Source: Squalus acanthias
Lineage: Eukaryota
DNA length: 64,000 nucleotides
NCBI GenBank assembly: GCA_030390025.1
Contig: JASTWF010000034.1
Coordinates: 2,294,001 to 2,358,000 of the forward strand
Direction: 5' to 3'
Shown: one piece after another, positions 1 through 38,690 of the stretch
Numbering within the stretch: the first letter of the stretch is position 1
How the letters are laid out: every line of letters starts with the position of its first letter
Position numbers and translations under genes: made by a program
Notes under the pieces: model-generated
Seen by the model: the letters and a program-made list of their open reading frames with translations, nothing else
Database searches by the model: none
What the model was told of the DNA's origin: nothing

Positions 1-660
1 CTTGCCTTCATCATTTCTCATCTCTACCCAAACCGCTTCTGCATCCTGGTTTCCTGAACTTTAGTCATCCCTCTATTGCGCTAATACCATTATTAATTTA
101 CAGAGCCACCCCTCCACTTTTTCCTAAATATCATGTACCCTTCAATATTCAGGTCCCAATGTTTGTCATCCTGCAGCCATGTCTCTGTAATAGCTATCAG
201 ATTGTACTTATTTAATTCTATTTACGCCATCAGTTCATCTGTTTTGTTTCGAATGCTTCGTGCATTCAGATACAGAGCCTTTAGTTTTGTCCTTTTGTTA
301 TTTTTGTAACCTTTAGCCTTATCTGTTGATTTACTCTTAGATTTGTACTCTCTATCCCTTCCCGTCTCGGTCTGCTTATCATTTCCCATGTTAATACCTT
401 TCTCTCTTGTCTTGTTTCTACTCTTTGATTTACCACATCTTCCCAGATTTGATCCCTGGCCCCCAATATTTAGTTGAAAGCCCTCTCTACCGCCCTAGTT
501 ATATGACTCGCCAGAACACTGGTCCCAGCACGGTTCAGGTGAAGACCAACCCAACGGTACAGTTCCCACTTTCCCCAGTACTGGTGCTAGTGCCCCAGGA
601 AGCGAAACCAATTTCTCCCATACCAGTCTTTGAGCTACGCATTCATCTCTCTAATTTGAT
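1..660 (-). mobile_element. CR1 LINE fragment (end of ORF1 / start of APE endonuclease)
   Basis: Minus strand reads LYLNARSIRNKTDELMA..YNLIAITETWLQ, a CR1 ORF2 N-terminus; mirror at 38027-38690. Confidence 0.85.
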
Positions 661-2885
661 GGAACAGGGTAGAGGGAGCTATACTTTGTATCTAAACCGT
701 GCTGTATCTGCCCTGGGAGTGTTCGATAGGTCTTTGTAGAGGGAGCTTTACTCTGTACCTAACCCGTGCACTACCTGCCCTGCGAGTATTTAATGCTACA
801 GTGATGAGGGAGCTTACTCTTTCAAAACAGTGCTGTACCTGCCCTGGGAGTGTTTGATGGGACGGTGTAGAGGGAGCTTTACTCTGTATCTAACCCTGTG
901 CTGTACCTGCCATGGTACTGTTTGATGGGACAGTGCAGAGGGAGTTTTACGCTGTATCTAACCCGTGCTGTACCTGCCCTCGGAATATTTGAAGGATCTT
1001 TGTAGAGGAAGCTTTACTCTGTATGTAACCCGTGCTGTATCTTCCTGGGAATATTTGAAGGGACAGTGCAGAGGAAGCTTTACTTTGCATCAATCCCTGT
1101 GCTGTACCTGCCCTGAGAGTGTTCGATAAGTCTTTGTAGAGGGAGCTTTACTCTGTACCTAACCCGTGCACTACCTGCCCTGCGAGTATGTAATGCTACA
1201 GTGATGAGGGATTTTTACTCTTTCAAAACAGTGCTGTACCTGCCCTGGGAGTGTTTGATCGGACAGTGTAGATGCAGCTTTACTCTGTATCTAACCCGTG
1301 CTGTACCTGCCCTGGGAGTGTTTGATGTGACAGTGTAGAGGGAGCTTTACTCTGTATCTAACCCCGTGCTGTACCAGCCATGGGGCTTTTTGATGGGACA
1401 GTGTAGAGGGAGCTTTACTCTGTGTCTAACCGGTGCTGTACCTGCCCTGGCAGTTTTTGATACGACAGTGTAAAGGGAGCTTTACTCTGTACCTAATCCA
1501 TGCATTACTTGCCGAGAGTGTTTGAGGGGACAGTGTAGAGGGAGCTTTATTCGGTATCTAACACGGGCTGTACCTGCCTGAGAAAGTTTGATGCGACAGT
1601 TTAGAGGAAGCTTTACTCTGTATCTAACCCGTGCTGTACCTGCCCTGGGAGTGTTTGATGGGACAGTGTAGAGGGAGCTTTACTCTGTATCTAACCCGTG
1701 CTGCACCTGCCCTGGGAGTGTTTGATAGGACAGTGTAGAGGGAGCTTTACTCTGTATCTAACCCCGTGCACGACCTGCCCTGCGAGTGCTTGATGAGGCA
1801 GTGTAGAGGGAGCTTTACTCTGTACCTAACCCGTGCACGACGTGCCCTGCGACTGTTTGATGGGGCAGTGTAGAGGGAGCTATACTCTGCATTTTACCTG
1901 TTCTGTACCTGCCCTGGGAGTGTTTCATGGGACAGTGCAGAGGGATCTTTACTCTGTAACTAACCTATGCACTAACTTCCCAGCGAGTGTTTGATGGGAC
2001 AGTTTAGATGGTGCTTTATTCTATATCTAACCATTGCAGTACCTGCCCTGGGAGTGTATGATGCGATTCTGCAGAGGGATCTTTACTCTGCATCTTACCT
2101 GTGCTGTACCAGTCCTGGGAGTGTTTGATGGGACAGTGTATAGGTAGATTTACTCTGCATCTTACCTGTGCTGTACCTAAACTCTGAGTGTTTGATGGGA
2201 AAGTATAGAGGGAACTTTACTCTGTAACTAACCTGTGCTGCACCTGCCCCGGGACTGTTTGTTGGGACAGTGTAGAGGGAGCTCTAATCTGTATCTAACC
2301 ATTGTTGTGTCTGCCCTTGGTGTGTTTGATAGCACAATGTATAGTGAGCTATACTCTGTATCTAACCCGTGCTGTTGCAGACCTGGGAGTGTTTGATGTG
2401 ATAGTATATATGGAGCATTACTCAGTATCTAACCCGTGCTGTACCTGCCCTGGGAGTGTTTCATGGGGCAGTCTAGAGGGAGCTTTACTCTGTATTTAAT
2501 CCATGCTGTACCTGACCTGGGAGTGTTTGATGCAAAAGTGTAGAGGCAGCTTTACTCTGCATCTTACCGTGCAGTACCTGGCCTGGGAGTGTTTGATGGG
2601 ATTGTGCAGAGGGCTCTTTACTATGTATCTAATCCTTGCAGTACCTGCCCTGGGAGTGTTTGATGGGATTGTGCAGAGGGCTCTTTACTATGTATCTAAT
2701 CCTTGCAGTACCTGCCCTGGGAGTGCTTGACGGCCAGTGTATTGTGCGCTTTACTCTATATCTAACCCATGCTGTACCTCACCTGCGAGTGTTTGATGGG
2801 ACCGTGCAGAGGGATCTTTACTAAGTATCTAACAAATGCTGTACCTGCACTGGGACTGTTTGATGGGACAGTGTAGTGGGAGCCT
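661..2885 (+). repeat. 67-bp tandem satellite (about 33 diverged units)
   Basis: Unit ACTCTGTATCTAACCCGTGCTGTACCTGCCCTGGGAGTGTTTGATGGGACAGTGTAGAGGGAGCTTT; period 67 (TATCTAACCC at 1621 and 1688). Confidence 0.95.
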
Positions 2886-3215
2886 TATAATTCTTTATAA
2901 CGTTAGAATCCTTAATAAACATTTACAAAAGGTGTATAACGGGTTATTAAGGATTATAATGATTTATAAAGGGTCATGTCCCTTTATAATATTTTGCATC
3001 ACTTTGTACCCCATTCAAATCCCTTTATAATCCTTTGTCGATCATTATAACAATTTATAAGCCTTTGTCGATCATTATAACCCTTTATATTCCTTAACAA
3101 TTCATCATAACACTTTATATTCTAAAATCAACATTTATATATCATTATAATACTTTATATTCATTTATAATAATTTATAACCCAGCATAATCCTTTATAA
3201 CCCTTTATAAAGCGT
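2886..3215. repeat. AT-rich low-complexity tract (TTATAA-rich)
   Basis: Repeated TTATAA/TTTATA words; mirror at 32455-32785. Confidence 0.7.
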
Positions 3216-4277
3216 CAGGATACAGCGTAGGGATAATGGGTAGGTACTCAAATTGGCAGGATGTGACTCGTGGTGTCCAGCAGGGCTGTGTTTTGGGGCC
3301 TCAGCTATTCACAATATTTATTAATGACTTAGGTGATGTCATAGAAAGTCATATACCCAAATTTGCCGATGACACAAAGATAGGCAGCATTGTAGGCAGT
3401 GTAGGTGAAACCATAAAATTACAAAGGGATATTGACAGATTAAGGGAATGGGCAAAACTATGGCAAATGGATTTCAATGTAAGCAAATGTGAGGTCATCA
3501 CTTTGGACCCTAAAAGGATAGAACAGGTTACTTTCTAAATGGTGAAAAGCTAAAAAGAGTGGATGTCCAAAGAGACTTCGGGGGTCCAGGTACATAGATC
3601 ATTAAAATGTCATGGACAGGTACAGAAAATAATCAAAAAGGCTCATGGAAAGCTGGTCTTTATATCTAGAGGACTAGATTACAAGGGGTAGAAGTTATTC
3701 TGCAGCTATACAAAACCCTGGTTAGACCACACCTGGAGTACTGTGAGCAGTTCTGGGCACCACACCTTAGGAAGGATATATTGGCCTTGGAGGGAGTGCA
3801 GCGCAGGTTTACCAGAATGATACCCAGACTTCAAGGGTTAAGTTACGAGGAGAGATTACACAAATTAGGGTACTATTCCCTAGAATTTAGAAGGTTAAGG
3901 GGTGATCTGAGCGAAGTTTTCAGGATATTAAGGGGAACAGATAGAGTAGATAGCGAGAAACTATTTCCATTGGTGGGGATACTAGGACTGGAGGCACAGT
4001 CTAAGAATTAGAGGCAGTCCTTTCAGGAGTGAAATTAGGAAACACTTCGACACACAAAGTGGTAGAAATTTGGAACTCTCTTCCACAAACGGAAGTGGAT
4101 GCTAGATAAATTGTTAATTTTAAATCGGAGATTTATTGCTTTTTGTTAACCAAAGGTATGAAGGGATATGGGCCAAAGGTGGGTTTATGGAGTTAGATCG
4201 CAGATCAGTCAATGATCGCATTGAATGGGGCAACAGGCTCGAGGGGCTGAATGGCCGACTCCTCTTCCTATGTTCCT
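3216..4277 (+). mobile_element. CR1 LINE 3' fragment (RT, frameshifted)
   Basis: GVQQGCVLGPQLFTIFINDL, KFADDTK, LEFRRLRGDL; CR1-type 3' UTR hairpin and tail. Confidence 0.93.
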
Positions 4278-4384
4278 CAGTGTAGGATCCGTTGACTTGT
4301 TAGCCCTCCCCAAATGCATTACCTCACACGACTCCGGATTGAATTCCATTTGCCACAATCTCCCTGCATGTAGCATGAGTTATA

Positions 4385-4900
4385 CACAGAGTAAAGTACC
4401 CTTTACACTGCCCAATCAAATAGTCCAAGGGCAGGTACAACACGGGTTAGATCGAGAGATACAGAGTAAAGCTCCCTTTACACTGCCCAATCAAACAGTC
4501 CAAGGGCAGGTACCCCACGGGTTAGATACAGAGTAAAGCTCCCTTTACACTGCCCAATCAAACAGTCCAAGGGCAGGTGCAGCACGGGTTGGATAGAGAG
4601 ATACAGAGTAAAGCTCCCTTTACAATGCCCAATCAAACAGTCCAAGGGCACGAACAGCACGGGTTAGATAGAGAGATACAGACTAAACCTTCCTCTGCCC
4701 TGTCCACTCAAACACTCGCAGGGCAGGTACAGCGCGGGTGACATGCAAAGCTCCCTCTAATACAGCATGTGCAGCGTACAGCTCCCTTGACACTACCCAA
4801 TGAAGCACAACCAGCTCGGGTACAGCATGGGATGAATACAGATAAAGATCTCACTACATGCAAGTGTCAAACACTCCCGGGTGAGGTACGGGCAAGGTTT
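4385..4900 (-). repeat. Degenerate 67-bp satellite in opposite orientation
   Basis: CAGAGTAAAGCTCCCTTTACACTGCCCAATCAAACAGTCCAAGGGCAGGT units; mirror about 30930-31285. Confidence 0.8.
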
Positions 4901-4993
4901 ATCTCCGAGTTAAGCTCCGCTCAACTTGCCACATCAAAGGCCGAGCCTGACGGCAGATGTTGAACAGCTCCCAGTATCTGGTTAGACTCTCAC

Positions 4994-5208
4994 CTCAGCA
5001 AAATCCTGGACTGATGGGATTCTCCGTAAAGTTCCTCACCTTTCCAATCATTGTTGAAGCTTCCCGTTTTATCCCGTCTCCGACACTGGGGGTCTCGATC
5101 CCACCAGATCTGCTCTGTGAAGCAGCGACATTTCTCCAGTACCAGTCAGTGAGGCGATGATTCGACTTCTCTCTCTCACCTTCCTGAGATATTGCTCACT
5201 CCCAGAGA
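4994..5208 (-). other. Putative exon 2 of an unidentified gene (left copy)
   Basis: Minus strand acceptor TTTTTCTATTGACAG|TCT and donors AAAG|GTGAGG (exon end 5040) and TGAG|GTGAGA (exon end 4994); present in three copies. Confidence 0.5.
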
Positions 5209-5382
5209 CTGTCAATAGAAAAATGATTCATATTAATCCCAGAATACAGGGGGAGCATTTTTGTGACCATAATTATATTCAATTTGATTATTTTTGCAAT
5301 TAATCAGGGTGTTTGAATTACTTACTTTAATATTGAATAGTTCTTTTCTGTCCATTGCCCTGTTTATTGGGACTAAACTCAC

Positions 5383-5640
5383 CCCCAGTGTCAGCTGTCA
5401 CTCCAGCTCCTCCCACACCGACATCCCACTGATGGGCCGTAACCAGGGGCGGGGCCCTGTCTCCAGGTGACATCACACAGCAGCTAGGAACGATGTCACA
5501 AAGCGGCCGGAACCCCTCCCACTCGAGGTGTCACAGGGTCACATTGACCATGCTCTGCTCCTGGTGTGCAGTCTCACTGGGCATGAACACAGGGTGTACA
5601 ATCAGCCCCGTCTCCGGGAATGAAATGGATCCTGCCCTAC
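5383..5640 (-). promoter_or_regulatory. Putative promoter and non-coding exon 1 with GC box and ERE (left copy)
   Basis: Donor GGGG|GTGAGT at 5381-5382 (minus), GGGGCGGGGC near 5446, GGTCAcatTGACC at 5537-5549, several TGACA/TGTCA motifs. Confidence 0.45.
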
Positions 5641-5859
5641 ATCTCTCCCGAGTTTTATTTCCATCGGTGTACAATGGGTGGCTGATTCACAATTACCCGG
5701 TTTGTACTTAGCACCTACTAAACGACAAACTCTACCCCAGTATTTCTTTCCTTCTCTACGTATCTGCTCCCTCACTGTCTCTGCCTCTCTCTCTCTCTCT
5801 GCAGTGAGGGATACGTCTGGGGCTGGGATCATACTGTGCGGAAAGGATCAGAATACCAG

Positions 5860-6938
5860 TTAGCCTCTCTTCCCTCTCCCACATCGTTACCTCTGTTGTC
5901 CCCCAAGGATCTCTCCTTGGCCCCCTCCTATTTCTCATCTACACGTTGCCACTTGGTGAAATCATCCAGAAACACAGTCAGTTCCACATGTACGCTGACG
6001 ACACCCAGCTCTACCTCACTACCTCTTCTCTCGACCCCTCCACGGTGTCTAAATTGTCAGACTGCTTGACCGACATGAGCAAAAGTTTCTCCAAGTAAAT
6101 ATTGGGAAGACCGAAGCCATTGTTTTCGGTCCCTGCCACCAACACCGTTCCCTTGCCACAGACTCAATCCCTCTCTCTAACATCTGTCTGAGGCTGAATC
6201 ACACTGTTCGCAACATTGGTGTCATATTTGACCCTGAATTGAGCTTCCGACCACATATCCGCAGCATAACAAAGGCCGCCTACTTCCACCTCCGTAACAT
6301 CACCCGTCTCCGCCCTTGCTCATCTCATCCGCTGCTGAAACCCTCATCCATGCCTTTGTTACTTCCAGACTTGACTATTCCAACGCACTCCTGGCTGGCC
6401 TCCCACATTCCACCCTATGTAAACTTGAGGTCATCCAAAACTCGGCTGCCCGTGTCCTAACTCGCACCAAGTCCCGTTCACCCATCTCCCCTGTGCTCGC
6501 TGACCTACACTGGCTCCCGGTTAAGCAGCACCTCGATTTCAAAATTCTCATCCTTGTTTTCAAATCCTTCCATGGCCTCGCCCCTTCCTATCTCTAATCT
6601 CCTTCAGCCCCACAAACCCCCGAGATATCTGCGCTCCTCTAATTCTGCCCTCTTCAGCAACCCTGATTACAATCGCTCAACATTTGGTGGCCCTGCCTTC
6701 TGTTGCCTAGGCCCTAAGTTCTAGAATTCCCAGCCTAAACCTCTCCGCCTCGCTAACTGTCTTTCCTCCTTGAAGACGCTCATTAAAACTTCAACTTTGA
6801 CTAAGATTTTAGTCACCTGTCCGAATTTATCCTGATGTGGCTCAATGTCAAAATTGTTTGTCTTAAAATACACCTGTGAAGCGACTAGGGACGTTTTACT
6901 ACGTTAAAGGCGCTATTTAAATACAAGTTATTGTTGTT
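5860..6938 (+). mobile_element. L2-clade LINE 3' fragment
   Basis: VPQGSLLGPLLF, MYADDTQLY, AETLIHAFVTSRLDYSN, LHWLPV; tail AAAGGCGCTATTTAAATACAAG(TTG)n. Confidence 0.92.
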
Positions 6939-7063
6939 GCACATCTCTGGCTCTATAGAATCATAGAATGGATACAGTACAGAAGGAGGCCTTACGGCCC
7001 GTCGAGCCCGTGCCGGCTTTCTACAAGAGCACTTCAGCAAGTCCCACTTATCCAATCCCCTTT

Positions 7064-8790
7064 TGATATACTCCACACCCCTCACTGTAACACGGATATA
7101 CTCCACACCCCTCACTGTAACACTGATATACCACACACCCCTCACTGTAACACTGATATACTCCACGCCCCTCACTGTAATACTGATATACCCCACACCC
7201 CTCACTGTAACACTGATATACTCCACACCCCTAACTGTAACACTGATATACCCCACACCCCTCACTGCAACACTGATATAACCCACACCCCTCACTGTAA
7301 CACTGATATACACCACACCCCTCACTGTAACACTGATATACCCCACACCCCTCACTGTAACACTGATATACCCCACACCCCTCACTGTAACACTGATATA
7401 CCCCACACCCCTCACTGTAACACTGATATATCCCGCACCCCTCACTGTAACACTGATATACTCCGCACCCCTAACTGTAACACTGATATATCCCACACCC
7501 CTCACTGTAACACTGATATACCCCACACCCCTCACTGTAACAGATATATCCCACACCCCTCACTGTAACACTGATATACTCCACACCCCTAACTGTAACA
7601 CTGAAATACCCCACATCCCTCACTGTAACACTGATACACCCCACACCCCTCACTGAAACACTGATATACCCCACACCCCTCACTGTAACACTGATATACC
7701 CCACACCCCTCACTGTAATGCACTGATATACCCCACACCCCTCACTGTAATGCACTGATATACCCCACACCCCTCACTGTAACACTGATATACCCCACAC
7801 CACTCACTGTAACACTGATATACCCCACACCCCTCACTGTAACACTGATATATCCCACACGCCTCACTGTAACACTGATATACCCCACACCCCTCACTGT
7901 AACACTGATATACGCCACACCCCACACTGTAAAACTGATATACCCCACACCCCTCACTATAACACTGATATACCCCACATCCCTCACTGTAACATTGATA
8001 TACCCCACACCCCTCACTGTAACACTGATATATCCCACACGCCTCACTGTAACACTGATATAACCCACACCACTCACTGTATTACTGATATACCCCACAC
8101 ACCTCACTGCAACACTGATATACCACTCACCCCTCACTAACACTGATATGCCCCACACCCCTCACTGTAACACAGCAGTACCCCACACCCCTCACTGTAA
8201 CACTGATATACCCCACACCCCTCACTGTAACACTGATATACCCCACATCCCTCACTGTAACACTGATATATCCCACACGCCTCACTGTAACACTGATATA
8301 ACCCACACCACTCACTGTATTACTGATATACCCCACACCTCTCACTGTAACACAGCAGTACCCCACACCCCTCACTGTAACACTGATATACCCCACACCT
8401 CTCACTGTAACACTGATATACCCCACACCTCTCACTGTAACACTGATATACCCCGCACCCCACACTGTAAAACTGATATACCCCACACTCCTCACTATAA
8501 CACTGATATACCCCACATCCCTCACTGTAACATTGATATACCCCACATCCCTCACTGGAACACTGATATATCCCACACGCCTCACTGTAACACTGATATA
8601 ACCCACACCACTCACTGTATTACTGATATACCCCACACCCCTCACTATAACACAGCAGTACCCCACACCCCTCACTGTAACACTGATATACCCCACACCT
8701 CTCACTGTAACACAGATATACCTTATACCCCTCAATTTAACACTGTGATATACCTCACTATAACACACGGAAATACCCCACAGGCCTCAC
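7064..8790. repeat. 30-bp minisatellite (about 57 units)
   Basis: Unit CACTGATATACCCCACACCCCTCACTGTAA. Confidence 0.97.
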
Positions 8791-8805
8791 AGTAACACTA
8801 TGCTT

Positions 8806-9567
8806 CAGTGGGGAGGCGAGCTGCTATTTTAGTGGGGAGGTGAGCTGCTGGTTTAGTGGGGAGGTGAGCTGCTGGTTTAGTGGGGAGGTGAGCTGCTGGT
8901 TTAGTGGGGAGGTGAGCTGCTGGTTTAGTGGGGAGGTGAGCTGCTGGTTTAGTGGGGAGGTGAGCTGCTGGTTTAGTGGGGAGGTGAGCTGCTGGTTTAG
9001 TGGGGAGGTGAGCTGCTGGTTTAGTGGGGAGGTGAGCTGCTGGTTTAGTGGGGAGGTGAGCTGCTGGTTTAGTGGGGAGGTGAGCTGCTGGTTTAGTGGG
9101 GAGGTGAGCTGCTGGTTTAGTGGGGAGGTGAGCTGCTGGTTTAGTGGGCTGGTGAGCTGCTGGTTTAGTGGGCTGGTGAGCTGCTGGTTTAGTGGGGAGG
9201 TGAGCTGCTGGTTTAGTGGGGAGGTGAGCTGCTGGTTTAGTGGGGAGGTGAGCTGCTGGTTTAGTGGGGAGGTGAGCTGCTGGTTTAGTGGGGAGGTGAG
9301 CTGCTGGTTTAGTGGGGAGGTGAGCTGCTGGTTTAGTGGGGAGGTGAGCTGCTGGTTTAGTGGGGAGGTGAGCTGCTGGTTTAGTGGGGAGGTGAGCTGC
9401 TGGTTTAGTGGGGAGGTGAGCTGCTGGTTTAGTGGGGAGGTGAGCTGCTGGTTTAGTGGGGAGGTGATCTGCTGGTTTAGTGGGCTGGTGAGCTGCTGGT
9501 TTAGTGGGGAGGTGAGCTGCTGGTTTAGTGGGGAGGTGAGCTGCTGGTTTAGTGGGGAGGTGAGCTG
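8806..9567. repeat. 24-bp near-perfect G-rich minisatellite (about 31 units)
   Basis: Unit GTGGGGAGGTGAGCTGCTGGTTTA. Confidence 0.98.
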
Positions 9568-9925
9568 TTATCATTCGTTGTTCTTGCCCATTGATCTCTA
9601 TCAGTTTGTTCTTTACTCTCCCACACAGGAGTGTTAATTACCTGCTTCTGTAACCTTCAAACCCTCACAGCTTCCAATGTCCTTTACAAAAGGGACTGAT
9701 TCTCTGCCCACACAGCCCAGCAGTCTTCCAGACACCCTGCTGGCATTAAATTCAATCTTCACACTCACCTATGCTCGGCAGCAGATGTGCGTCTTTCTGG
9801 AGTGTATTCTAACCTAACTTAATCCGTGGTTATTCTAGCTTAATATTGATATAATTCCATATGTCAACCAGTGTATTATATTTAATAATCTATACATACC
9901 AATACTTACAAGAACTTTTAAAAGG

Positions 9926-10459
9926 TCAGCTTTCAGAGTGCATTCGCTTGCGCTTCAGTAGACTGGATGACCTTGTGAATCTCTCCACACACATGGAGTG
10001 GGTCAACAGTCTCTCCCCAGTGTGTCTGCGCCGATGAATTTGCATCTGAGACGGATAATTGAACCCCTTCTCACAGTCCCCACATTCCCACGGTTTCTCC
10101 ATGGTCCATCTGTCTCTCCAGGTTGGACGATCGTTTGAAGCCTCGTCCACACACATAACACGTGTACGGTTTCTCCCCGCTGTGAATGGTGTGAAGTTTT
10201 TTCAGGCTGTGTAGCTGGTTACAGCTCTTTCCACAGTCAGTGCACTGGAACACTCTCGCTCAAGTGTGAATGGGTCTCAGTGCTTTCCCAGTCGCATGAT
10301 GTGTAAAATCCTTTCCCACACACAAGAACCCGAGAAAGATGTCTCCTTCCGCATTCAAAGGCCGATGATATTCAGGTCCTGATGAATCGAGTGACTCTCA
10401 GATCTTGGCGTGATGTTTGTTTTGAGTTTCTTGTCTACAAATCCTCCCCTTCTAATACC
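9926..10459 (-). pseudogene. C2H2 zinc-finger exon, frameshifted (left copy)
   Basis: [68 protein letters not shown]; acceptor TTTTTCAG|GGT on minus strand at 10460. Confidence 0.9.
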
Positions 10460-10674
10460 CTGAAAAAGGAGATTACAAAAGTCATCACTAAGTGCAGGAC
10501 ATAAATTCAGAACAGACAATTCTACTTTCTATGGAACAATCTTTCCTCTCTTGTTTCCCCCAAAAGCTGTAAATTCCTGTCCCACACACTCTCCCTCTCC
10601 CTGTGCTGAAATCCCTACCCATTGCACCATATTTTTGCCCCAACCCACTCTCTCCCTCCCTCTGCTCTCCAGCC

Positions 10675-11207: not shown

Positions 11208-11224
11208 GCAGCTTCTGCTGCACC

Positions 11225-11750: not shown

Positions 11751-11921
11751 GGGTAAACACACTGCCATTGAAAGTTCCAATTGCTGAAGAGATCATTCAC
11801 ATTTTCAGATTGGGCCTTTGTTCACTACCTGTAGGCGGCTAACATTAAGTTGCCCCATTTTCACTAGACGTGGACATAAACCAATAAGGCAAGTGTCCCA
11901 GCACACCACAAATATCCAGTA

Positions 11922-12027
11922 ACAGTTCTGACGAAGGGCCCTGGACCCGAAACGTTGACTCTGTTTCTCTCTCCTCGATGCTGCCTGACCTACTGAGTGT
12001 TTCCAACATGTTCTGTTGTTATTCCTG
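11922..12027 (+). mobile_element. Penelope pseudo-LTR remnant with hammerhead motif
   Basis: CTGACGA-AGGGCCCTGGACCC-GAAACGTT followed by CTCTCTCC..GATGCTGCCTGACC, as at the 3' ends of the other Penelope copies; mirror 22015-22122. Confidence 0.75.
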
Positions 12028-12059
12028 TAATAAGTATGTACAATACACCCAAACACACA

Positions 12060-14040: not shown

Positions 14041-14069
14041 TCCTCGTAGATGCATGCAGAAGAAAAAGA

Positions 14070-22850: not shown

Positions 22851-22854
22851 AGCA

Positions 22855-26638: not shown

Positions 26639-28420
26639 ACATCCCCTGTGGCCAGAGAGGTTCTGAATATATGTGTTACAGCCCCCGCAATCTCCTCCTT
26701 TGCCTCACACAGCAGCCTGGGATACATTTCGTCCGGACCTGGGGATTTATCCATTTTTAGACCTGCTAAAACCGCCAATACCTCCTCCCGCTCGATGTTA
26801 AAATGTTCGAGTATATCACAGTCCCCCTGCCCTAATTTTATGTCTGCATCGTCCTTCTCCATAGTGAAAACAGATGCAAAAAATTCATTTAGAACCCCAC
26901 CTACATCTTCCGGCTCCACACACAGATTGCCACTTTTGTCCCTAATGGGCCCTATTTTTTCCCTAGTTATCCTCTTACCCTTAATATACTTAGAAAACAT
27001 CTTAGGATTTTCCTTTATTTTGCTCGCCAGTGTTATTTCATGGCCTCTCTTTGATCTCCTAATTTCTTTTTTAAGTATTCCCCTGCACTCTTTGTACTCC
27101 TCTTGTGCTTCCTCCGTCATTAGCATTTTGTATCTGCCAAAAGCCCTCCTTTTTTTCCTGATCCATTCTCGTATATCCCCTGACATCCAAGGTTCCCTGG
27201 GGTTTTTGGAACCACCCTTGACCTTTACGGGAACATGCTGCCATTGTATGATCTCAATCTCGCTTCTGAAAGAATTACATTGCTCCGATGCGGATTTTCC
27301 TACAAGCAGCTGATCCCAGTCCCTTTTGGCCAGATCCTGCCTTATCCTATTAAAATCGGCCTTCCCCCAATTTAGAACCTTCATTTCCGGCCCACCCCTG
27401 TCCTTTTCCATGACCACCTTAAATCTCACCGTATTATGGTCACTGTCACCAAAGTGCTCACCTACTAGCACTTCTTCCACTTGGCCGGCCACATTCCCTA
27501 GAATTAGGTCCAGTACCGCCCCCTCTCTTGCAGGACTTTCTACATGCTGGCTCAAAAAGCTCTCCTGGATGCACTTTAAGAATTTTGAACCCTCTAAGCC
27601 TTTCACACTCTGACTATCCCAGTTAATATTGGGGAAGTTGAAATCCCCCATTATTATTACCCTATTATTTGCACATTTCTCTGAGATTTGCCTACATATC
27701 TGTTCCTCTATCTCCCCCTGACTGTTTGGGGGCCTATAGTACGCTCCCAGCAAAGTGCTTGCCCCCTTTTTGTTTTTAAGCTCCACCCATATAGCCTCAT
27801 TGGAGGAACCTGCTAATATATCATCCCTCCTTGTGGCAGTAATTGATTCCTTAATTAATATTGCGACACCCCCTCCTCTTATACCTCCCCCTCTGTCTCG
27901 CCTGAAGATTCTGTACTCCGGAATATTGAGCTGCCAGTCTTGCCCCTCCCTCAACCATGTCTCCGTGATAGCAACAATAGCATACTCCCATGTGTTTATC
28001 AACACCTTCAGTTCATCAACCTTATTCGCTAGACTCCTTGCATTAAAATAGATGCCTTCCAGCCTTGCTCTTACATGTTTGCCCTGTCTTCCAAGCTGAC
28101 TTGTTTTTTTCTCTATATTTGACTGTACATCACCCCCTATTGCAGCTCCACTCTGTATCCCATCCCCCTGCCAAGTTAGTTTAAACCCCCCCCCCCCCCA
28201 ACAGTGCTAGCAAACCTCCCCGCAAGGATATTTGTCCCGCTCTGGTTCAGGTGCAAACCGTCCGACTGCTGGGGAGTGTGGACAGAGAATCCGTCCCTTT
28301 TGTAAAGGACATTGGAAGCTGTGAGGGTTTGAAGGTTACAGAAGCAGGTCATGAACACTCCTGTGTTGGAGGGTAAAGAACAAACTGATAGAGATTAATG
28401 GGCAAGCACAACGAATGATA

Positions 28421-28650
28421 ACAGCTCACCTCCCCACTAAACCAGCAGCTCACCTACCTACTAAACCAGCAGCTCCCTGGCCCACGAAACTAGCAGCTCA
28501 CTGGCCCATGAAGCCAGCAGCTTACCTCCCCACTAAACCAGCAGCTCGCCTCCCCAGTGAATCACAGCTTTACTATGAGGGCTGTGGGCTATTTCTGTGT
28601 GTTACAGTGAGGGGTATATCAGTGTTACAGTGAGGGGTGTGGGGTATATT
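28421..28650. repeat. Short, diverged versions of the 24-bp (about 5-6 units) and 30-bp (about 2-3 units) arrays
   Basis: CAGCTCACCTCCCCACTAAACCAG units then GTGTTACAGTGAGGGGTGTGGGGTATAT. Confidence 0.9.
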
Positions 28651-28787
28651 TGCAGTGCTACGGGGAAAGGGTGGGGGAGAAGGGACAAGCTGAAGTGCTC
28701 TTGCAGAGAGCCGGCACGGGCTCGATGGACCGTATGGCCTTATTCTGTGCTGTAACCATTCTATGATTATATAGAGCCAGAGATGTA

Positions 28788-29880
28788 CAACAACAATAAC
28801 TTGTATTTAAATAGCGCCTTTAACGTAGTAAAACGTCCCAAGGCGCTTCACAGGAGTATTTTAAGACAAACAATTTTAACATTGAGCCATAGAAGGTTAA
28901 ATTAGGACAGGTGACTAAAAGCTTGGTCAAAGTGGGAGGTTTTAATGAGCGTCTTTGAGGAGGAAAGGGAGGTAGCGAGGCGGAGAGGTTTCGGGAGGCA
29001 ATTCCAGAGCTTGTGGCCTAGGCAACAGAAGGCACGGCCACCAAATGTTGAGCGATTATAATCAGGGATGCTCAAGAGGGCAGAATTAGAGGAGCGCAGA
29101 TATCTCGGGGGGTGGGGGGGCAGAGTTGTGGGCTGAAGGAGATTAGAGATAGGAAGGGGCGAGGCCATGGAGGGATTTGAAAACGCGGATGATAATTTTG
29201 AAATCGGGGCGCTGCTTACCCGGGAGCCAGTGCAGGTCAGCGAGCACAGGGGAGATGGGTGAACGGGACTTGGTACGAGTTAGGACGCGGGCAGCCGAGT
29301 TTTGGATGATCTCAAGTTTACATCGGGTGGAATGTGGGAGGCCAGCCAGGAGTGCGTTGGAATAGTCAAGTCTCGAAGTAACAAAGGCATGGATGAGGGT
29401 TTCAGCAGCGGATGAGATGAGGCAAGGGCGGACACGGGCGATGTTATGGAGGTGGAAGTAGACGGCCTTTGTTATGCTGCGGATATGTGGTCGGAGGCTC
29501 ACTTCAGGGTCAAATATGACACCAATGTTGCGAACAGTGTGGTTCAGCCTCAGACAGATGTTAGGGAGAGGGATTGAGTCTGTGGCTAGGGAACGGTGTT
29601 GGTGGCAGGGACCGAAAACAATGGCTTCGGTCTTCCCAATATTTACTTGGAGAAACTTTTGCTCATGTCGGTCAAGCAGTCTGACAATTTAGACACCGTG
29701 GAGGGGTCGAGAGAAGAGGTAGTGAGGTAGAGCTGGGTGTCGTCAGCGTACATGTGGAAACTGACTGTGTTTCTGGATGATGTCACCAAGGGGCAACATG
29801 TAGATGAGAAATAGGAGGGGGGCAAGGAGAGATCCTTGGGGGACACCAGAGGTAACGATGTGGGAGCGGGAAGAGAGGCT
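28788..29880 (-). mobile_element. L2 LINE 3' fragment (mirror of 5860-6938)
   Basis: FHMYADDTQLY, AETLIHAFVTSRLDYSN. Confidence 0.92.
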
Positions 29881-29935
29881 AACTGATATTCTGATCCTTT
29901 CCGCACAGTATGATCCCAGCCCCAGACGTATCCCT

Positions 29936-29936
<1 letters not shown>

Positions 29937-29999
<63 letters not shown>
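29937..29999. repeat. (GA)n microsatellite, about 31 units
   Basis: Direct; the mirror near 5785-5800 is much shorter. Confidence 0.97.
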
Positions 30000-30000
<1 letters not shown>

Positions 30001-30159
30001 CAGAGACAGTGAGGGAGCAGATACGTAGAGAAGGAAAGAAATACTGGGTTGGAGTTTGACGTTTAGTAGGTGCTATCGTAAAAACTGGGTAATGGTGAAT
30101 CAGCCACCCATTTTACACCGATGGAAATAAAACTCGGGAGAGATGTAGGGCAGGATCCC

Positions 30160-30424
30160 GGTTCATTCCCGGAGACGGGGCTGATTGTACACCCTGTGTT
30201 CATGCCCAGTGAGACTGCACACCAGGAGCAGAGCCTGGTCAATGTGACCCTGTGACACCTCGAGTGGGAGGGGCTCCGGCCGCTTTGTGACATCGCTCCT
30301 GGCTGCTGTGTGATTGGCTCCTGGCTGCTGTGTGATGTCACCTGGGACAGGCCCCTGCCCCTGGTTGCGGCCCATCAGTGGGATGTCAGTGTGGGAGGAG
30401 CTGGAGTGACAGCTGACACTGGGG
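30160..30424 (+). promoter_or_regulatory. Putative promoter and exon 1 with perfect ERE (right copy)
   Basis: GGTCAatgTGACC at 30237-30249; ATTGG near 30313; donor GGGG|GTGAGT at 30425. Confidence 0.45.
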
Positions 30425-30597
30425 GTGAGTTTAGTCCCAATAAACAGGGCAATGGACAGAAAAGAACTATTCAATATTAAAGTAATAATTCAAACACACT
30501 GATTAATTGCAAAAATAATCAAATTGAATATATTTATGGTCACAAAAATGCTCCCCCTGTATTCTGCAATTAATATGAATCATTTTTCTATTGACAG

Positions 30598-30815
30598 TCT
30601 CTGGGAGTGAGCAATATCTCAGGAAGGTGGAGAGAGAGAAGTCGAATCATCGCCTCACTGACTGGGACTGGAGAATTGTCGCTGGTTTCACAGAGCAGAT
30701 CTGGTGGGATAACGAACCCCCAGTGTCGGAGACGGGATAAAACGGGAAGCTTCAACAATGATTGGAAAGGTGAGGAACTTTACTGAGAATTCCTTCAGTC
30801 CAGGGCTTTGTTGAG
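30598..30815 (+). other. Putative exon 2 of unidentified gene (right copy)
   Basis: Acceptor TTTTTCTATTGACAG ends 30597; ATG 30758; donor GT at 30770 or 30816. Confidence 0.5.
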
Positions 30816-31392
30816 GTGAGAGTCTAACCAGATACTGGGAGCTATTCAACATCTGCCATCAGGCTCGGCCTTTGATGTGGCAAGTTGAGCGGAGCTTAAC
30901 TCGGAGATAAACCTTGCCCGTACCTCACCCGGGAGTGTTTGACACTTGCATGTAGTGAGATCTTTATTCTGTATTCATCCCATGCTGTACCCGAGCTGGT
31001 TGTGCTTCATTGGGTAGTGTCAAGGGAGCTGTAAGCTGCAGATGCTGTATTAGAGGGAGCTTTGCATGTCACCCGCGCTGTACCTGCTCTGCGAGTGTTT
31101 GAGTGGACAGTGCAGAGGAAGGTTTAGTCTGTATCTCTCTATCTAACCCGTGCTGTTCGTGCCCTTGGACTGTTTGATTCGACAGTGTAAAGGGAGCTTT
31201 ACTCTGTATCTCTCCATCTAACCAGTGCTGTACCTGCCCATGGACTATTTGATTGGGCAGTGTAAAGGGAGCTTTACTCTGTGTATAACTCATGCTACAT
31301 GCAGGGAGATTGTGGCAAATGGAATTCAATCCGGAGAAGTGTGAGGTAATGCATTTGGGGAGGGCTAACAAGTCAACGGATCCTACACTGAG

Positions 31393-32455
31393 GAACATAG
31401 GAAGAGGAGTCGGCCATTGAGCCCCTCGAGCCTGTTGCCTCATTCAATGCGATCATTGACTGATCTGCGATCTAACTCAATAAACCCACCTTTGGCCCAT
31501 ATCCCTTCATACCTTTGGTTAACAAAAAGCAATAAATCTCCGATTTAAAATTAACAATTTATCTAGCATCCACTTCCGTTTGTGGAAGAGAGTTCCAAAT
31601 TTCTCCCACTTTGTGTGTCGAAGTGTTTCCAAATTTCAGTCCTGAAAGGACTGCCTCTAATTCTTAGACGTTGCCTCCAGTCCCAGTATTCCCAGCAATG
31701 GAAATAGTTTCTCGCTATCTACTCTATCTGTTCCCCTTAATATCCTGAAAACTTCGCTCAGATCACCCCTTAACCTTCTAAATTCTAGAAAACAGTACCC
31801 TAATTTGTGTAATCTCTCCTCGTAACTTAACTCTTGAAGTCTGGGTATCATTCTGGTAAACCTGCGCTGCACTCCCTCCAAGGCCAATATATCCTTCCTA
31901 AGGTGTGGTGCCCAGAACTGCTCACAGTACTCCAGGTGTGGTCTAACCAGGGTTTTGTACAGCTGCAGAATAACTTCTACCCCCTTGTAATCTAGTCCTT
32001 TAGATATAAAGACCAGCTTTCCATTAGCCTTTTTGATTATTTTCTGTACCTGTCCATGACATTTTAATGATCTGTGTACCTGGACCCCCCAAGTCTCTTT
32101 GGACATCCACAGTTTTTAGCTTTTAACATTTAGAAAGTCACCTGTTCTATCCTTTTAGGGTCCAAAGTGATTGCCCTCACATTTGCTTATATGGAAATCC
32201 ATTTGCCATAGTTTTGCCCATTCACTTAATCTGTCAATATCCCTTTGTAATTTTATGGTTTCACCTACACTGCCTACAATGCTGCCTATCTTTGTGTCAT
32301 CGGCACATTTGGGTATATGACTTTCTATGACATCACCTAAATCATTGATAAATATTGTGAATAGCTGAGGCCCCAAAACACAGCCCTGCCGGACACCAGG
32401 AGTCACATCCTGCCAATTTGAGTACCTACCCAATATCCCTACGCTGTATCCTGAC
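31393..32455 (-). mobile_element. CR1 3' fragment (mirror of 3216-4277)
   Basis: ORFs 32155-32433 and 31657-32106. Confidence 0.92.
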
Positions 32456-32784
32456 GCTTTATAAAGGGCTATAAAGGATTATGCTGGGTTATAAATTATT
32501 ATAAATGAATATGAAGTATTATAATATATAAAGGTTGACAATAGAATATAAAGTGTTATGATGAATTGTTAAGGAATATAAAGGGTTGAAATGATCGACA
32601 AAGGCTTATAAAGTGTTATAATGATTGACAAACGATTATAAAGGAATTTAATGGGGTACAAAGTGATGCAAAATATGATAAAGGGACATGACCCTTTATA
32701 AATCATTATAATCCTTAATAACCCGTTATACACCTTTTGTAAATGATTATTAAGGAATCTAATGTTATGAAGCGTTATAAGGCT

Positions 32785-35700
32785 CCCACTACACTGTCCC
32801 ATCAAACAGTCCCAGTGCAGGTACAGCATTTGTTAGATTCTTAGTATGGATCCCTCTGCACTGTCCCATCAAACACTAGCAGGTTAGGTACAGCATGGGT
32901 TAGACATAGAGTAAAGCGCACAATACACTGGCCGTCAAGCACTCCCAGTGCACGTACAGCAAGGTTTAGATACAGAATAAAGAGCTCTCTACACAATCCC
33001 ATCAAACACTCCCAGGGCAGGAACAGCAAGGTTTAAATACAGAGTAAAGCTTCCTCTACACTGTTGCAACAAGGATTCCCAGGCAGCTACAGCACTAGTT
33101 AGATACAGAGTAAAGCTCCCTCTACACTGTCCCAACACACACTCCCAGGGCAGGTACAGCACGGGTTAGATACAGAGTAAAGCTCCCTCTACACTGTCCC
33201 ATCAAACAATCCCAGTGCAGGTACAGCATTTGTTAGATTCTTAGTAAAGATCCCTCTGCACTGTCCCATCAAACACTCGCAGGTTAGGTACAGCATGGGT
33301 TAGATATACAGTCAAGCGCACAATACACTGCCTGTTTTTGCACTCCCAGGGCAGGTACAGCAAGGTTTAGATACAGAGTAAAGAGCCCTCTACACAATCC
33401 CATCAAACACTCCCAGGGCAGGTACAGCAAGGTTTAGATACAGAGTAAAGCTTCCTCTACACTGTCCCAACACACACTCCCACGGCAGGTTGAGTACGGG
33501 TTAGATACAGAGTAATGCTCCCTCCACATTATGCCATCAAACAATCCCAGGTAATGTACAGCACGGGTTACATACAGAGTAAAGCTCTCTCTACACTGTC
33601 CCAACAAGCATTCCCAGGCAGCTACAGCACGAGTTAGATGCAGAGTAAAGCTCCCTCTACGCTGTCCTATCAAAAACTGCCAGGGCAGGTACAGCACGGG
33701 TTAGATACAGAGTAAAGCTCCCTCTACACTGTCCCATCAAACACTCACATATCAGGTACAGTACAAGTAAGATCCAGAGTAAATCTGCCTCTACACTTTC
33801 CCATGAATCACTCCCAGGGCAGATACAGCACGGGTTAGATACCGAGTAAAGCTCCCTCTACACTGTCGTTTCAATACCTGCCAGGGCAGGTATATCACAG
33901 TTTAGCTGCAGAGTAAAGATAATTCTAAAAGGACCCAGTCAGGGGGAGATGGAGGAACAGATATGCAGGCAAATCTCAGAGAAATGTGCAAATAATAGGG
34001 TAATAATAATGGGGGATTTCAACTTCCCCAATATTAACTGGGATAGTCAGAGTGTGAAAGGCTTAGAGGGTTCAAAATTCTGAAACTGCATCCAGGAGAG
34101 CTTTTTGAGCCAGCATGTAGAAAGTCCTACAAGAGAGGGGGCGGTACTGGACCTAATTCTAGGGAATGTGGCCGGCCAAGTGGAAGAAGTGCTAGTAGGT
34201 GAGCACTTTGGTGACAGTGACCATAATACGGTGAGATTTAAGGTGGTCATGGAAAAGAACAGGGATGGGCCGGAAATAAAGGTTCTAAATTGGGGGAAGG
34301 CCGATTTTAATAGGATAAGGCAGGATCTGGCCAAAATGGACTGGGATCAGCTGCTTGTAGGAAAATCTGCATCGGAGCAATGGGATTCTTTCAGAAGGGA
34401 GATTGAGATCATACAATGGCAGCATGTTCCCGTAAAGGTCAAGGGTGGTTCCAAAAAACGCAGGGAACCTTGGATGTCGGGGGATATACGAGAATGGATC
34501 AGGAAAAAAAGGAGGGCTTTTGGCAGATACAAAATGCTAAAGACGGAGGAAGCACAAGAGGAGTACAAAATGTGCAGGGGGATACTTAAAAAAGAAATTA
34601 GGAGATCAAGGAGGGGCCATGAAATAACACTGGCGAGCAAAATAAAGGAAAATCCTAAGATGTTTTATAAGTATATTAAGGGTAAGAGTATAACTAGGGA
34701 AAAAATAGGGCCCATTAGGGACAAAAGTGGCAATCTGTGTGTGGAGCCGGAAGATGAAGGTGGGGTTCTAAATGAATTTTTTGCATCTGTTTTCACTATG
34801 GAGAAGGACGATGCAGACATAAAATTAGGGCAGGGGGACTGTGATATACTCGAACATTTTAACATCGAGAGGGAGGAGGTATTGGCGGTTTTAGCAGGTC
34901 TAAAAATGGATAAATCCCCAGGTCTGGACGAAATGTATCCCAGGCTGCTGTGTGAGGCAAAGGAGCCGATTGCGGGGGCTCTAACACAATTATTCAGAAC
35001 CTCTCTGGCCACAGGGGAGGTGCCAGAGGACTGGAGAACCGCTAATGTAGTACCATTATTCAAGAAAGGGAGTATGGAAAAACCGGGTAACTACAGGCCA
35101 GTGAGCCTAACATCAGTGGTAGGAAAATTATTGGAAAAATTTCTGAGGGACAAAATTAGTCTCCACTTGGAGAGGCAAGGATTAATCAGGATTAGCCAAC
35201 ATGGCTTTGTCAAGGGAAGATCATGTCTGACTAATTTGATTGAATTTTTGAGGGGGTGACTAGGTGTGTGGATGAGGTTAACGCAGTGGATGTGGTATAC
35301 ATGGATTTCAGTAAGGCCTTCGATAAAGTCCCGCACAGGAGACTGGTCAAGAAGGTAAGATCCCATGGAATCCAGGGTGCCTTGGCACATTGGATACAAA
35401 ACTGGCTCAGTGGCAGAAGGCAGAGGGTGATGGTCGAAGGTTGTTTTTGTGACTGGAAGCCTGTAGCCAGTGGGGTACCACAGGGATCGGTGCTGGGTCC
35501 CTTGCTGTTTGTGTTCTACTTTAACGACTTGGATATGAATGTAAAAGGTATGATCAGTAAGTTCGCGGATGATGCAAAAATTGGTAGGGTGGTAAATAGC
35601 GAGGAGAGGGTAGCCTCAGTCTGCAGGACGATATAGATGGGTTGGTCAGATGGGTGGAACAGTGGCAAATGGAATTTAATCCGGAAAAGTGCGAGGTGAT

Positions 35701-38027
35701 GCACTTTGGGGGGACTAACAAGGCAAGGGAATACACAATGAATGGTAAGACCCGAGGCAAGACGGAGGGTCAGAGGGATCTTGGTGTACAAGTACACAGA
35801 TCCCTGAAGGCGGCGGAACAGATGCATAAGGTGGTAAAAAAGGGATATGGGATACTTGCATTCATTAGCCGAGGCATAGAATATAAGAGCAAGGAGGTTA
35901 TGATGGAGCTGTATAAAACACTGGTTTGGCCACATCTGGAATACTGTGTGCAGTTCTGGTCGCCACACTACAGGAAGGATGTTATCGCTTTGGAGAGGGT
36001 GCAGAGGAGTTTCACCAGAATGTTACCCGGGCTGGAGTGCTTCAGCTATGAAGAGAGACTGGGCAGATTGGGTTTGTTTTCCTTGGAGCAGAGGAGGCTG
36101 AAGGGGGACATGATTGAGGTGTACAAAATTATGAGGGGCATAAAAGGGATGAATACTAAGGAGCTTTTTCCTTTAGCAGAGGGGTCTATAACAACGGGGC
36201 ATAGATTCAAGGTAAAGCGCTGGAGGTTTAGAAGGGATTTGAGAAAGAACTTTTTCACCCAGAGTGTGGTTGGAGTCTGGAACTCACTGCCTGAAAGGGT
36301 TATGGAGGCAGGAACCCTCACAACATTCAAGAAGCATTTGGATGAGCACTTGAAATGCCATAGCATACAAGGCTACGGACCAAATGCTGGAATATGGGAT
36401 TAGATTAGACAGGGCTTGATGGCCGGCGCGGACACGATGGGCCGAAGGGCCTCTATCCGTGCTGTATAACTCTATGACTCTATGACCCATCAATACTTCC
36501 AGGGCAGCTACAGCACAGGGTAAGAAACAGAGTAATGCTTCCTCTACTCGGTCCCATCTAACTGTCCCAAGCAAGTACAGCCCGGTTTAAATACCGAATA
36601 AAGCTCCCTCTATACTATCCCATCAAACACTCACAAGTCAGGTACAGCACAAGTAAGATACAGAGTAAGCTTGCCTCTACACTGTTGCATCAAACACTCT
36701 CAGGCCAGTTACAGCACGGGTTAAAGACAGAGTAAAGATCCTTCTACAGAATCCCATCAAACATGCCCATTGCAGGTACAGCAATGGTTAGATATAGAGT
36801 AAAGCTCCCACTGCACTGTCCCATCAAACACTCGCAGGGCAGTTAGTGCATGGGTTAGGTGCAGAGTAAAGCTCCTTGTATACTATCACATCAAACACTC
36901 CAGGCCAGGTACTGCACGGGTAAGATGCAGAGTAAAGCTGCATCTACACTGTTGCATCAAACAATCCCAGGTCAGGTACAGTACGGATTAGATACAGAGT
37001 AAAACTCCCTCTACACTGCCCCATCAAACACTCACAGGGCAGGTACAGTACGGGTTAGATACTGAGTAAATCTCCCTGTATACTGTCACATCAAACACTC
37101 CCAGGTCTGGAATAGCACGGGTTAGATACAGAGTAAAGACCCCTCTATCCTGTTCCAACCAACAATCCCAGGCCAGGTACTGCACGGGTTAGATACAAGA
37201 ATAGCTCACTATACATTGTGCCATCAAACACACCAAGTGCAGATACAACAATGGTTAGATATAGAGTAGAGCTCCCTCTACACTGTCCCATCAAACACTC
37301 GCAGGGCAGTTAGTGCATGGGTTAAATACAGAGTAAAGCTCCCTCTACACTGTCCCATCAAACACTCCCAGGACAGGTGCAGCGCAGATTAGATGCAGAG
37401 TAAAGCTCCCTCTACACTGCCCCATCAAACACTCCCAGGGCAGGTACAACACGGGTTAGATACAGAGTAAAGCTGCCTTTACAAAGACTCATCAAATACT
37501 CCCAGGGCAGTTTCAGAACAGTTTAGATGTAGAGTAAAGCTTGCTGGACACTGACATCAATTATTTCCACGGCAGGTACAGCCCGGGTTGGATACAGAGT
37601 AAAGCTCCCTTTACATTGTGCCATAAAACAGATCCATGGCATGGACAGCACTGTTTTGAAAGAGTAAAGCTCCCTCATCACTGTCGCATTAAATACTCGC
37701 AGGGCAGGTATTGCACGAGTTAGGTACAGAGTAAAGCTCCCTCTACAAAGACCTATCGAACACTCCCAGGGCAGGTAGAGCACAGGGATTGATGCAAAGT
37801 AAAGCTCCCTCTACACTGTCCCTTCAAATATGCCCAGGAAGATACAGCCCGGGTTAGATACAAAGTAAAGCTCCCTCTACAAAGACTCATCAAACACTCC
37901 CAGGGCAGGTACAGCACGGGTTAGGTACAGAGTAAAGCTCCCTCTACAAATACCCATCAAACACTCCCAGGGCAGATACAGCACGATTTAGATACAGAGT
38001 AAAGCTCCCTCTAACCTGGTCCATCAA
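32785..38027 (-). repeat. 67-bp satellite interrupted by a CR1 insertion
   Basis: Reverse-complement units at 32785-33920 and 36486-38027. Confidence 0.93.
33937..36485 (+). mobile_element. 5'-truncated CR1 LINE, same subfamily as 24511-28263, right arm only
   Basis: ORFs 34105-35259, 35256-35636, 35642-36403 nearly identical in translation to 26629-28005 and 24585-25721; (CTCTATGA)n tail. Confidence 0.95.
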
Positions 38028-38690
38028 ATTACAGAGATGAATGCGTAGCTCAAAGACTGGTATGGGAGAAATTGGTTTCGCTTCCTGGGGCACTAGCACC
38101 AGTACTGGGGAAAGTGGGATCTGTACCGTTGGGTTGGTCTTCACCTGAACCGTGCTGGGACCAGTGTTCTGGCGAGTCATATAACTAGGGCGGTAGAGAG
38201 GGCTTTCAACTAAATATTGGGGGCCAGGGATCAGATCTAGGAAGATGTGGTAATTCAAAGAGTAGAAACAAGACAACAGAGAAAGGTATTAATATGGGAA
38301 ATGATAAACAGACCGTGACGTGAAGGGATAGAGAGTACAAATCTAAGAGTAAATCAACAGATAAGGCTAAAGGTTACAAAAATAATAAAAGGACAAAACT
38401 GAAGGCTCTGTATCTGAATGCACGAAGCATTCGAAACAAAACAGATGAACTGATGGCACAAATAGAATTAAATAAGTACAATCTGATAGCCATTACAGAG
38501 ACATGGCTGCAGGATGACAAACATTGGGACCTGAATATTGAACGGTACATGATATTTAGGAAAAAGTGGAGGGGTGGCTCTGTAAATTAATAATGGTATT
38601 AGCGCAATAGAGGGATGACTTAAGTTCAGGAAACCAGGATGTAGAAGCGGTTTGGGTAGAGATGAGAAATGATGAAGGCAAGCGTCACTT
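38027..38690 (+). mobile_element. CR1 fragment (mirror of 1-660)
   Basis: LYLNARSIRNKTDELMAQIELNKYNLIAITETWLQ. Confidence 0.85.

Follow-up and report, generated by a model that had tools for sequence, protein, structure and literature searches.

An inverted duplication of decayed zinc-finger units in Squalus acanthias with signs of a fold-back origin and of one later exchange

Within contig JASTWF010000034.1 of the Squalus acanthias assembly GCA_030390025.1 we analyzed a stretch of 64,000 nucleotides (positions 2,294,001 to 2,358,000 of the forward strand; called the window in the following), which has a G+C content of 46%, contains no N and carries two copies of a broken zinc-finger unit in mirror orientation. 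Its positions 1–15400 and 18282–38682 are collinear reverse complements of each other and enclose a spacer of 2,881 bp (15401–18281). Read from the spacer outwards, each arm starts with a Harbinger-like DNA transposon carrying a 730-bp insert, followed by what we take to be a short fragment of a long interspersed nuclear element (LINE) and a short interspersed nuclear element (SINE), a CpG island, an intron with a LINE piece and a C2H2 finger exon. Further out lie a 24-bp tandem array, a LINE presumably of L2 type, an outward-facing promoter-like stretch with an exon, an old CR1 piece, an AT-rich stretch, a 67-bp array and a CR1 piece (Table 1). The CpG island likely represents the promoter and first exon of the zinc-finger gene, and a KRAB-type partner domain was neither found in the zinc-finger units nor expected there. 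The locus as a whole is real, old, gene-dead and ordinary in kind, likely a fold-back-like inverted segmental duplication that was altered by one later long exchange.

The mirror was delimited by a self-BLAST after masking of the tandem arrays and by pairwise alignment outside the 67-bp arrays. The minus-strand chain runs through the outer blocks 1–653/38682–38030, 2893–4357/32772–31311 and 4761–7045/31049–28682 and the inner blocks 9568–9725/28421–28264, 9933–12140/24134–21904 and 12130–15400/21644–18282. Together with 20-mer counts it gave exactly the coordinates of the inverted arms and the 2.9-kb spacer that an initial annotation, made from the letters alone, had proposed: 20-mers common to the right and left arm number 3,786 in inverted and 70 in direct orientation, compared to 204 inverted and 306 direct for a control region of equal length (38683–59083). 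Substitutions occupy 742 of the 10,471 aligned non-satellite columns (7.1%, or 92.9% identity). Segmental duplications are defined as sequences of more than 1 kb with about 90% or more identity that are collinear across repeats and non-repeat DNA, and this is what the arms show as an inverted pair, the repeats involved being of varied kinds. The arms are unequal in length (15.4 kb left, 20.4 kb right, with only about 10.5 kb per arm aligning outside the tandem arrays) because of arm-specific LINEs and satellite arrays. Two mismatches in 120 bp at the outer end (1–120) were reproduced as annotated, and the 4 in 120 given for the zinc-finger exon turned out to be its best window, whereas the worst window has 23 in 120 and the whole exon 48 in 534 (9.0%).

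Table 1: Features of the window, with positions counted from its first letter.
Feature	Position	Strand	Remarks
Left arm	1..15400		may run on left of the window
Right arm	18282..38682		reverse complement of the left arm
Spacer	15401..18281		2,881 bp, no mirror partner within the window
Outer, younger part of left arm	1..6505		139/4,115 columns differ (3.4%); partner ~29235–38682
Inner, older part of left arm	6506..15400		603/6,356 columns differ (9.5%); partner 18282 to ~29234
Harbinger-like element, left	12216..15400	+	broken Myb/SANT gene (Pfam PF13873); cut at 15400
Harbinger-like element, right	17826..21560	-	17826–18281 probably continuation and end within the spacer
~730-bp insert in the element	14076..14806		common to both arms; partner ~18899–19640; joints 18898/18899 to 19639/19644
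CR1-type LINE 3' end, 5'-truncated	15401..15757	+	inner mirror junction at its 5' edge
Decayed Penelope-like element	15758..17410	+	no Pfam match of its own
Broken C2H2 zinc-finger exon, left	9933..10470	-	stops and frameshifts; lacks ~165 bp present in right copy
Broken C2H2 zinc-finger exon, right	23600..24300	+	Pfam PF00096, E 3.4e-11; broken frames
CpG island	11207..11750	-	CpG observed/expected 1.03; partner ~22290–22860, 0.92
Exon-like unit with GC-rich promoter-like stretch	4960..5640	-	outward-facing, GT donor at end; partner ~30150–30840 (+)
Third copy of outward-facing exon unit	38692..39288	+	directly past the right arm
LINE fragment with identity step	5930..6939	+	partner 28787–29812 (-); separate family copy 42898–43888
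67-bp tandem array	655..2887	+	33 units; partner in two parts, 36486–38028 and 32778–33918
30-bp and 24-bp arrays	7064..9567		30-bp array expanded in left arm only; 24-bp array 31.7 units
CR1-type LINE, right arm only	24510..28264	-	4-bp direct repeat at its ends
Second CR1-type LINE, right arm only	33936..36478	+	inside 67-bp array; 3.0–4.0% from the 24510..28264 copy

A mirror of this kind could also arise as an assembly artefact from a fold-back read or a mis-oriented join, and no contig among the listed matches from public runs (described below) confirmed the orientation. Position 1 moreover pairs with 38682, about 10 bases short of the point where the right-arm CR1 piece ends and the third exon copy starts; this may be chance, or the start of the window may lie near a real or an assembly breakpoint. 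An artefact is nevertheless extremely improbable: the arms are set apart by the 742 substitutions and by whole insertions, no N occurs in the window, and in one run (X6) left-type as well as right-type sequence is present at 0–3% from the window, with a left-type contig over the outer edge of the element (2/207 differences) and a right-type contig without any difference (0/178).

The identity changes along the arms, with the strongest change-point at position 6506, where the divergence rises from 3.4% in the outer to 9.5% in the inner part (twice the log-likelihood difference 156, 0 of 100 permutations). CpG decay as the cause of the uneven identity was rejected, as the step is also seen at non-CpG sites (2.9 vs 8.2%) and in transversions (1.9 vs 5.1%). 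In the outer part, five kinds of sequence, among them LINE, AT-rich, exon and promoter sequence, do not differ significantly in divergence (chi-square p 0.15). Recent short conversion tracts were rejected as well, as the identical runs are no longer than chance allows in either part (longest run 193 in the outer part, P 0.14, and 82 in the inner part, P 0.15; 2,000 permutations each). The uneven identity was confirmed; in place of the patchy conversion by which it had first been explained, a single step near 6506 together with a diverged CpG island describes it better. For the latter 10–20% divergence had been estimated and 93/541 (17.2%) were measured, which makes the CpG islands the most diverged part of the arms (transversions 9.8%), even though both have kept a CpG observed/expected ratio close to 1 next to genes that are dead. 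They may mark a local hot spot of mutation or recombination, or may have exchanged sequence with other promoters.

The step falls inside the presumed L2-type LINE, of which a separate family member at 42898–43888 served as reference for a three-way comparison. Across the step the distance from the left arm to this third copy goes from 6.2 to 5.8% and that from the right arm from 5.8 to 8.7%, while the distance between the arms within the LINE rises from 3.4 to 10.0%. Sites at which the arms agree with each other and differ from the third copy stand to sites private to one arm as 21:16 before and 8:37 after the step (Fisher p 0.0004). At the level of the sequence this suggests one later long exchange starting in the LINE and not a change in rate. 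One duplication without later exchange, in which the local mutation rate alone makes the identity uneven, would be in agreement with the CpG island reaching 17% divergence without loss of CpG, with asymmetric arm-private changes and with the lack of identical runs beyond chance. We consider it decidedly unlikely, as the step lies inside one LINE whose left-to-third distance stays flat and as the divergence of the 4,115 outer columns is a uniform 3.4%, whether the sequence is LINE, AT-rich, exon or promoter. Using the mutation rate of the epaulette shark, 7e-10 per base per generation (confidence interval 1.4–14.1e-10; PMC10587355), the divergences of 3.4% and 9.5% would correspond to roughly 2e7 and 7e7 generations, a dating with a borrowed rate that shows only that duplication and exchange are both old.

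The palindrome had initially been described as centred on a DNA transposon, but its centre is a LINE-filled spacer, with the midpoint of the mirror at 16841 inside the Penelope-like element. The spacer consists of the 5'-truncated end of a LINE, presumably of CR1 type, the decayed Penelope-like element, a SINE-like tail and then the probable rest of the right Harbinger-like element. A relative of the Penelope-like copy at 46566–47685 shows a GIY-YIG match just below the cut-off. That both inner ends lie inside the Harbinger element is true, although one homologous position had thereby been counted twice, with the left copy stopping there and the right copy appearing to continue into the spacer. 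The inner break is found about 450 bp inside the element, abutting the CR1 fragment and not at a transposon end, and both arms retain the same transposon end. As judged from their sequence, the two element copies are one insertion that was duplicated together with its flanks and not two insertions, because both arms keep the same outer end and the 730-bp insert, which other family copies lack, and because 7 of the 8 run contig pieces (see below) that lie farther from an arm than the opposite arm does fall in the element.

The element itself carries a Myb/SANT gene which, read through one stop, matches PF13873 with 23.5 bits (cut-off 21.7). A DDE transposase domain had no Pfam match in 12 frames over both element copies, and a weak protein search with a candidate N-terminal piece of the transposase found no homologue among 114 candidates. 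This fits a deletion derivative without the transposase core, which is why we name it Harbinger-like only. The 730-bp insert occupies the place expected for this core; it is possibly a solo long terminal repeat, and family copies without it are present among the contigs of run X3. PIF/Harbinger elements are marked by terminal inverted repeats of 25–50 bp and a target duplication of 3 bp (PMC9179366). An end-to-end local comparison of the element ends gave no clear terminal repeats and no target duplication but only weak similarity (best local scores 19 and 24), the ends being either decayed or misplaced. According to the same source, Harbingers went undetected in the elephant shark and a check of other cartilaginous fish was called for (PMC9179366). 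In three deep runs the summed contig depth reaches 4e4–4e5 in the majority of element bins, to be compared with 15–30 in the lowest listed contigs, which is a hint at a high copy number and not a count.

An origin by alternative (sister-chromatid) transposition of the element ends, in the manner of Ac/Ds, has been considered for this reason: a high-copy element with a Myb gene adjoins the centre, the outer breakpoint falls outside the window, and sister-chromatid transposition in rice gives inverted duplications of 1.2–520 kb (PMC3239180), which share with our locus the DNA-transposon copies at the centre. Those products break at the transposon termini and leave footprints (PMC3239180), whereas the shark break is internal and lies against a LINE. 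In addition, the end common to both arms, the lack of evident terminal repeats, target duplication and DDE domain, and an abundance of the family that makes a nearby copy unremarkable render this origin very improbable. The seeding by a transposon, one of the two origins offered in the initial annotation, is therefore not upheld, while the inverted duplication, the uneven identity, the fold-back size of the spacer and the sign of a later exchange are. A transposase role in the duplication is unlikely, and the element was likely a passenger that was copied along and not the cause.

The arrangement around the spacer resembles that of fold-back inverted duplications in human, in which the spacers measure 766–70,466 bp with a median of 3,428 bp and 13 of 21 junctions show 2–8 bp of microhomology (Hermetz et al. 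2014, PMC3907307). With 2,881 bp the spacer described here fits this range of 0.8–70 kb and is close to the human median, and in both cases an unduplicated spacer of about 3 kb ends at a junction derived from repeats. The human events are new, megabase-sized and found beside terminal deletions, mostly with 2–8 bp of clean microhomology or a hybrid repeat (PMC3907307), whereas the shark locus is old, fixed in the assembly and tens of kb long as far as visible, with an ambiguous junction.

In the model that we propose, the original strand would have carried in this order the zinc-finger unit, the whole element, the Penelope-like copy and the CR1. A break in the CR1 would have folded back and re-primed 2.9 kb upstream in the interior of the element, creating a single new junction (15400/15401) and leaving the spacer single. 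The arms would then have decayed apart to about 6–10%, before a long non-reciprocal copy, starting inside the LINE, replaced an outer part of 6.5 kb or more by conversion, break-induced replication or unequal exchange, with the other arm or a close paralogue as donor. Finally, two CR1 copies would have inserted into the right arm, with no exchange detectable since. We regard this model, an old fold-back inverted duplication of a broken zinc-finger cassette with the element as passenger and an outer part later overwritten by one exchange, as somewhat more probable than all others together.

Several points weigh against this model. At the junction the microhomology is weak, consisting of a 4-base match with a 2-base offset, and the lost side cannot be reconstructed from the CR1 relatives in the window because of their divergence; the true first junction could also have been wiped out by insertions and deletions that came later. 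Stacked insertions plus a deletion would also account for the inner junction, while a plain insertion of the CR1 was rejected, as the sequence on its 3' side is not the continuation of the element. The boundary of the step was picked from the same arm-to-arm data that were used for the test, and the independent part of the test, sites at which only the third copy differs (21/498 vs 8/380), reaches only p 0.09. Divergence within the inner part is overdispersed (p 5e-10), the insert being lowest with 5.5% and the CpG island highest with 17.2%, and in two places one arm has many more private changes than the other, with opposite bias (29:10 for the intron LINE and 3:13 for the outer exon unit), from which it follows that rate differences or a mosaic ancestry explain some of the pattern. 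Finally, none of the listed run contigs, which are at most 465 bp long, bridges 15400 or 18282, so that the orientation is neither confirmed nor contradicted by them; the run organisms may differ from the species of the window, and contig depth is not copy number.

These contigs come from a search that found matching sequence in 20 runs from 9 studies, all of them contigs, with a best share of 0.59; neither an RNA run, from which nothing follows about expression, nor sexed raw reads are listed among them. Four of the 20 runs were compared over 9570–24500 at a cut-off of 90%. The comparison was flooded by transposon copies, and the matches listed comprise 40 of 694 letter rows, 15 of 1,564 joints and 32 of about 506,600 pieces. 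After dropping five of the 32 pieces (four from the spacer, one mostly of right-only DNA) and one without partner, 26 were compared. Of these, 18 are more similar to one of the arms than the two arms are to each other; the other 8 are farther from an arm than the arms are from each other, 7 of them in the element. Closer paralogues elsewhere, which the initial annotation had set against a duplication, are thus partly matched by these pieces, but orthologues and paralogues are indistinguishable here. In the letter rows, of which 33 remained once the 7 in the spacer were removed, 22 letters occur in one arm only, 4 are common to both arms and differ from the runs, 4 rows show a third letter and 3 have no partner. 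Joints on "opposite strands" pair homologous positions of the arms, as any third paralogue would do, and were not counted as evidence. For the 3' flank of the zinc-finger gene a contig of run X11 has a depth of 295.5 (about 20 for the lowest of that run) and the summed depth in run X1 is near 1,900–2,000, and two sites in the right promoter occur in 5–6 contig variants in X1. In run X6 the left-type contig over the outer edge of the element has a depth of 41.7, compared to 3.5 for the lowest listed contig of that run. Because of these depths and variants, and of the third exon copy in the window, the zinc-finger cassette likely belongs to a multi-copy family with many copies elsewhere.

The same data can be read as a mosaic of paralogues, in which separately placed or reshuffled members of the cassette family ended up head to head, the step marking where two family members crossed over and the inner end resulting from a later deletion. 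In favor of such a mosaic are the 18 of 26 closer pieces, the many variants and high depth on non-transposon parts, the third exon copy at 38692–39288, the lopsided private changes and three levels of divergence of about 3, 6–8 and 11–17%. On the other hand, the 90% cut-off and the assignment of each piece to its best place favor close pieces, which may be orthologues from related species, and one local event is the simpler explanation for two arms that are separated by only 2.9 kb and both carry the element with the insert. The mosaic is thus a possible explanation, albeit one we rather doubt, and the fold-back duplication with one later exchange is preferred.

That the arms had been homogenized as a palindrome, as initially suggested, was not confirmed for the mammalian type of converting palindrome. 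Palindromes on primate X and Y chromosomes have arms of more than 8 kb less than 500 kb apart (Jackson et al. 2021, PMC8327919), as is the case here with 15.4 and 20.4 kb. They are however kept at more than 99% identity by ongoing conversion, and 21 of 26 contain protein-coding genes (PMC8327919), whereas the shark arms show 83–97% identity (96.6% in the outer and 90.5% in the inner part), broken genes and no recent tract. Conversion tracts of several kb are known from palindrome P6, with an inferred minimum length of up to 9,023 bp (Hallast et al. 2013, PMC3723533). It is conceivable, if unlikely, that the window is the decayed inner rim of a larger amplicon palindrome, with conversion of 6.5 kb or more across arms about 6% apart and an identity rising past position 1. 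Conversion would then have stopped at the LINE and left age strata along the arm. For a cartilaginous fish, and possibly for one of its sex chromosomes, this would be a first fossil trace of how palindrome conversion ceased, beginning next to the spacer and proceeding outwards. Should the mirror continue to the left with rising identity, or be sex-linked, it would offer a non-mammalian case for the start, the divergence tolerance and the stop of arm conversion. No literature on shark palindromes was found in a weak search that covered few subscription papers, and the available text of the whale shark paper (PMC13100897) yielded no passage on palindromes or segmental duplication.

As it stands the locus matters little: clusters of C2H2 zinc-finger genes evolve by birth and death, inverted duplications of decaying units are expected in them, and both genes are broken. 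Its useful feature is the sharp, datable step inside a LINE as a clean example of a long exchange between diverged copies. A local duplication of units made of promoter, intron and finger exon, followed by decay, is shared with the tandem segmental duplications and C2H2 clusters of vertebrates. Across vertebrates, duplications of the local kind predominate (PMC12642534); the main text of that paper does not contain the word "inverted" and so provides no frequency for this orientation.

Among the other contents of the arms, the exon-like unit with a GT donor occurs in three copies (4960–5240, 30570–30840 and 38820–39090), none of which has a long reading frame. The 67-bp satellite is found at several places (655–2887, 32778–38028, 40873–41183 and 4379–4760), and in the arrays of the arms the end units are collinear while those in the middle are shuffled, which may be a small record of array turnover after the outer exchange. 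The 24-bp array has a partner of 5.6 units in the right arm (28422–28556). Both CR1 copies restricted to the right arm belong to one young subfamily, are inverted to each other, 96–97% alike and 5.7 kb apart, and keep long frames of 525, 391 and 380 amino acids; a nested duplication was rejected for them, as their flanks differ. A search of 1–44000 against Rfam gave no match. Beyond the mirror, an AT-rich array of 52 bp with 47 copies and 92% identity is located at 44132–46563, with single related units at 42761–42886 and 47665–47752. The 47-bp array at 42128–42502 (8 copies) translates into a repeated reverse-transcriptase motif of a LINE and thus probably arose by amplification within a CR1. 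A further array, with a unit of 51 bp and 5.8 copies, is present at 61816–62110.

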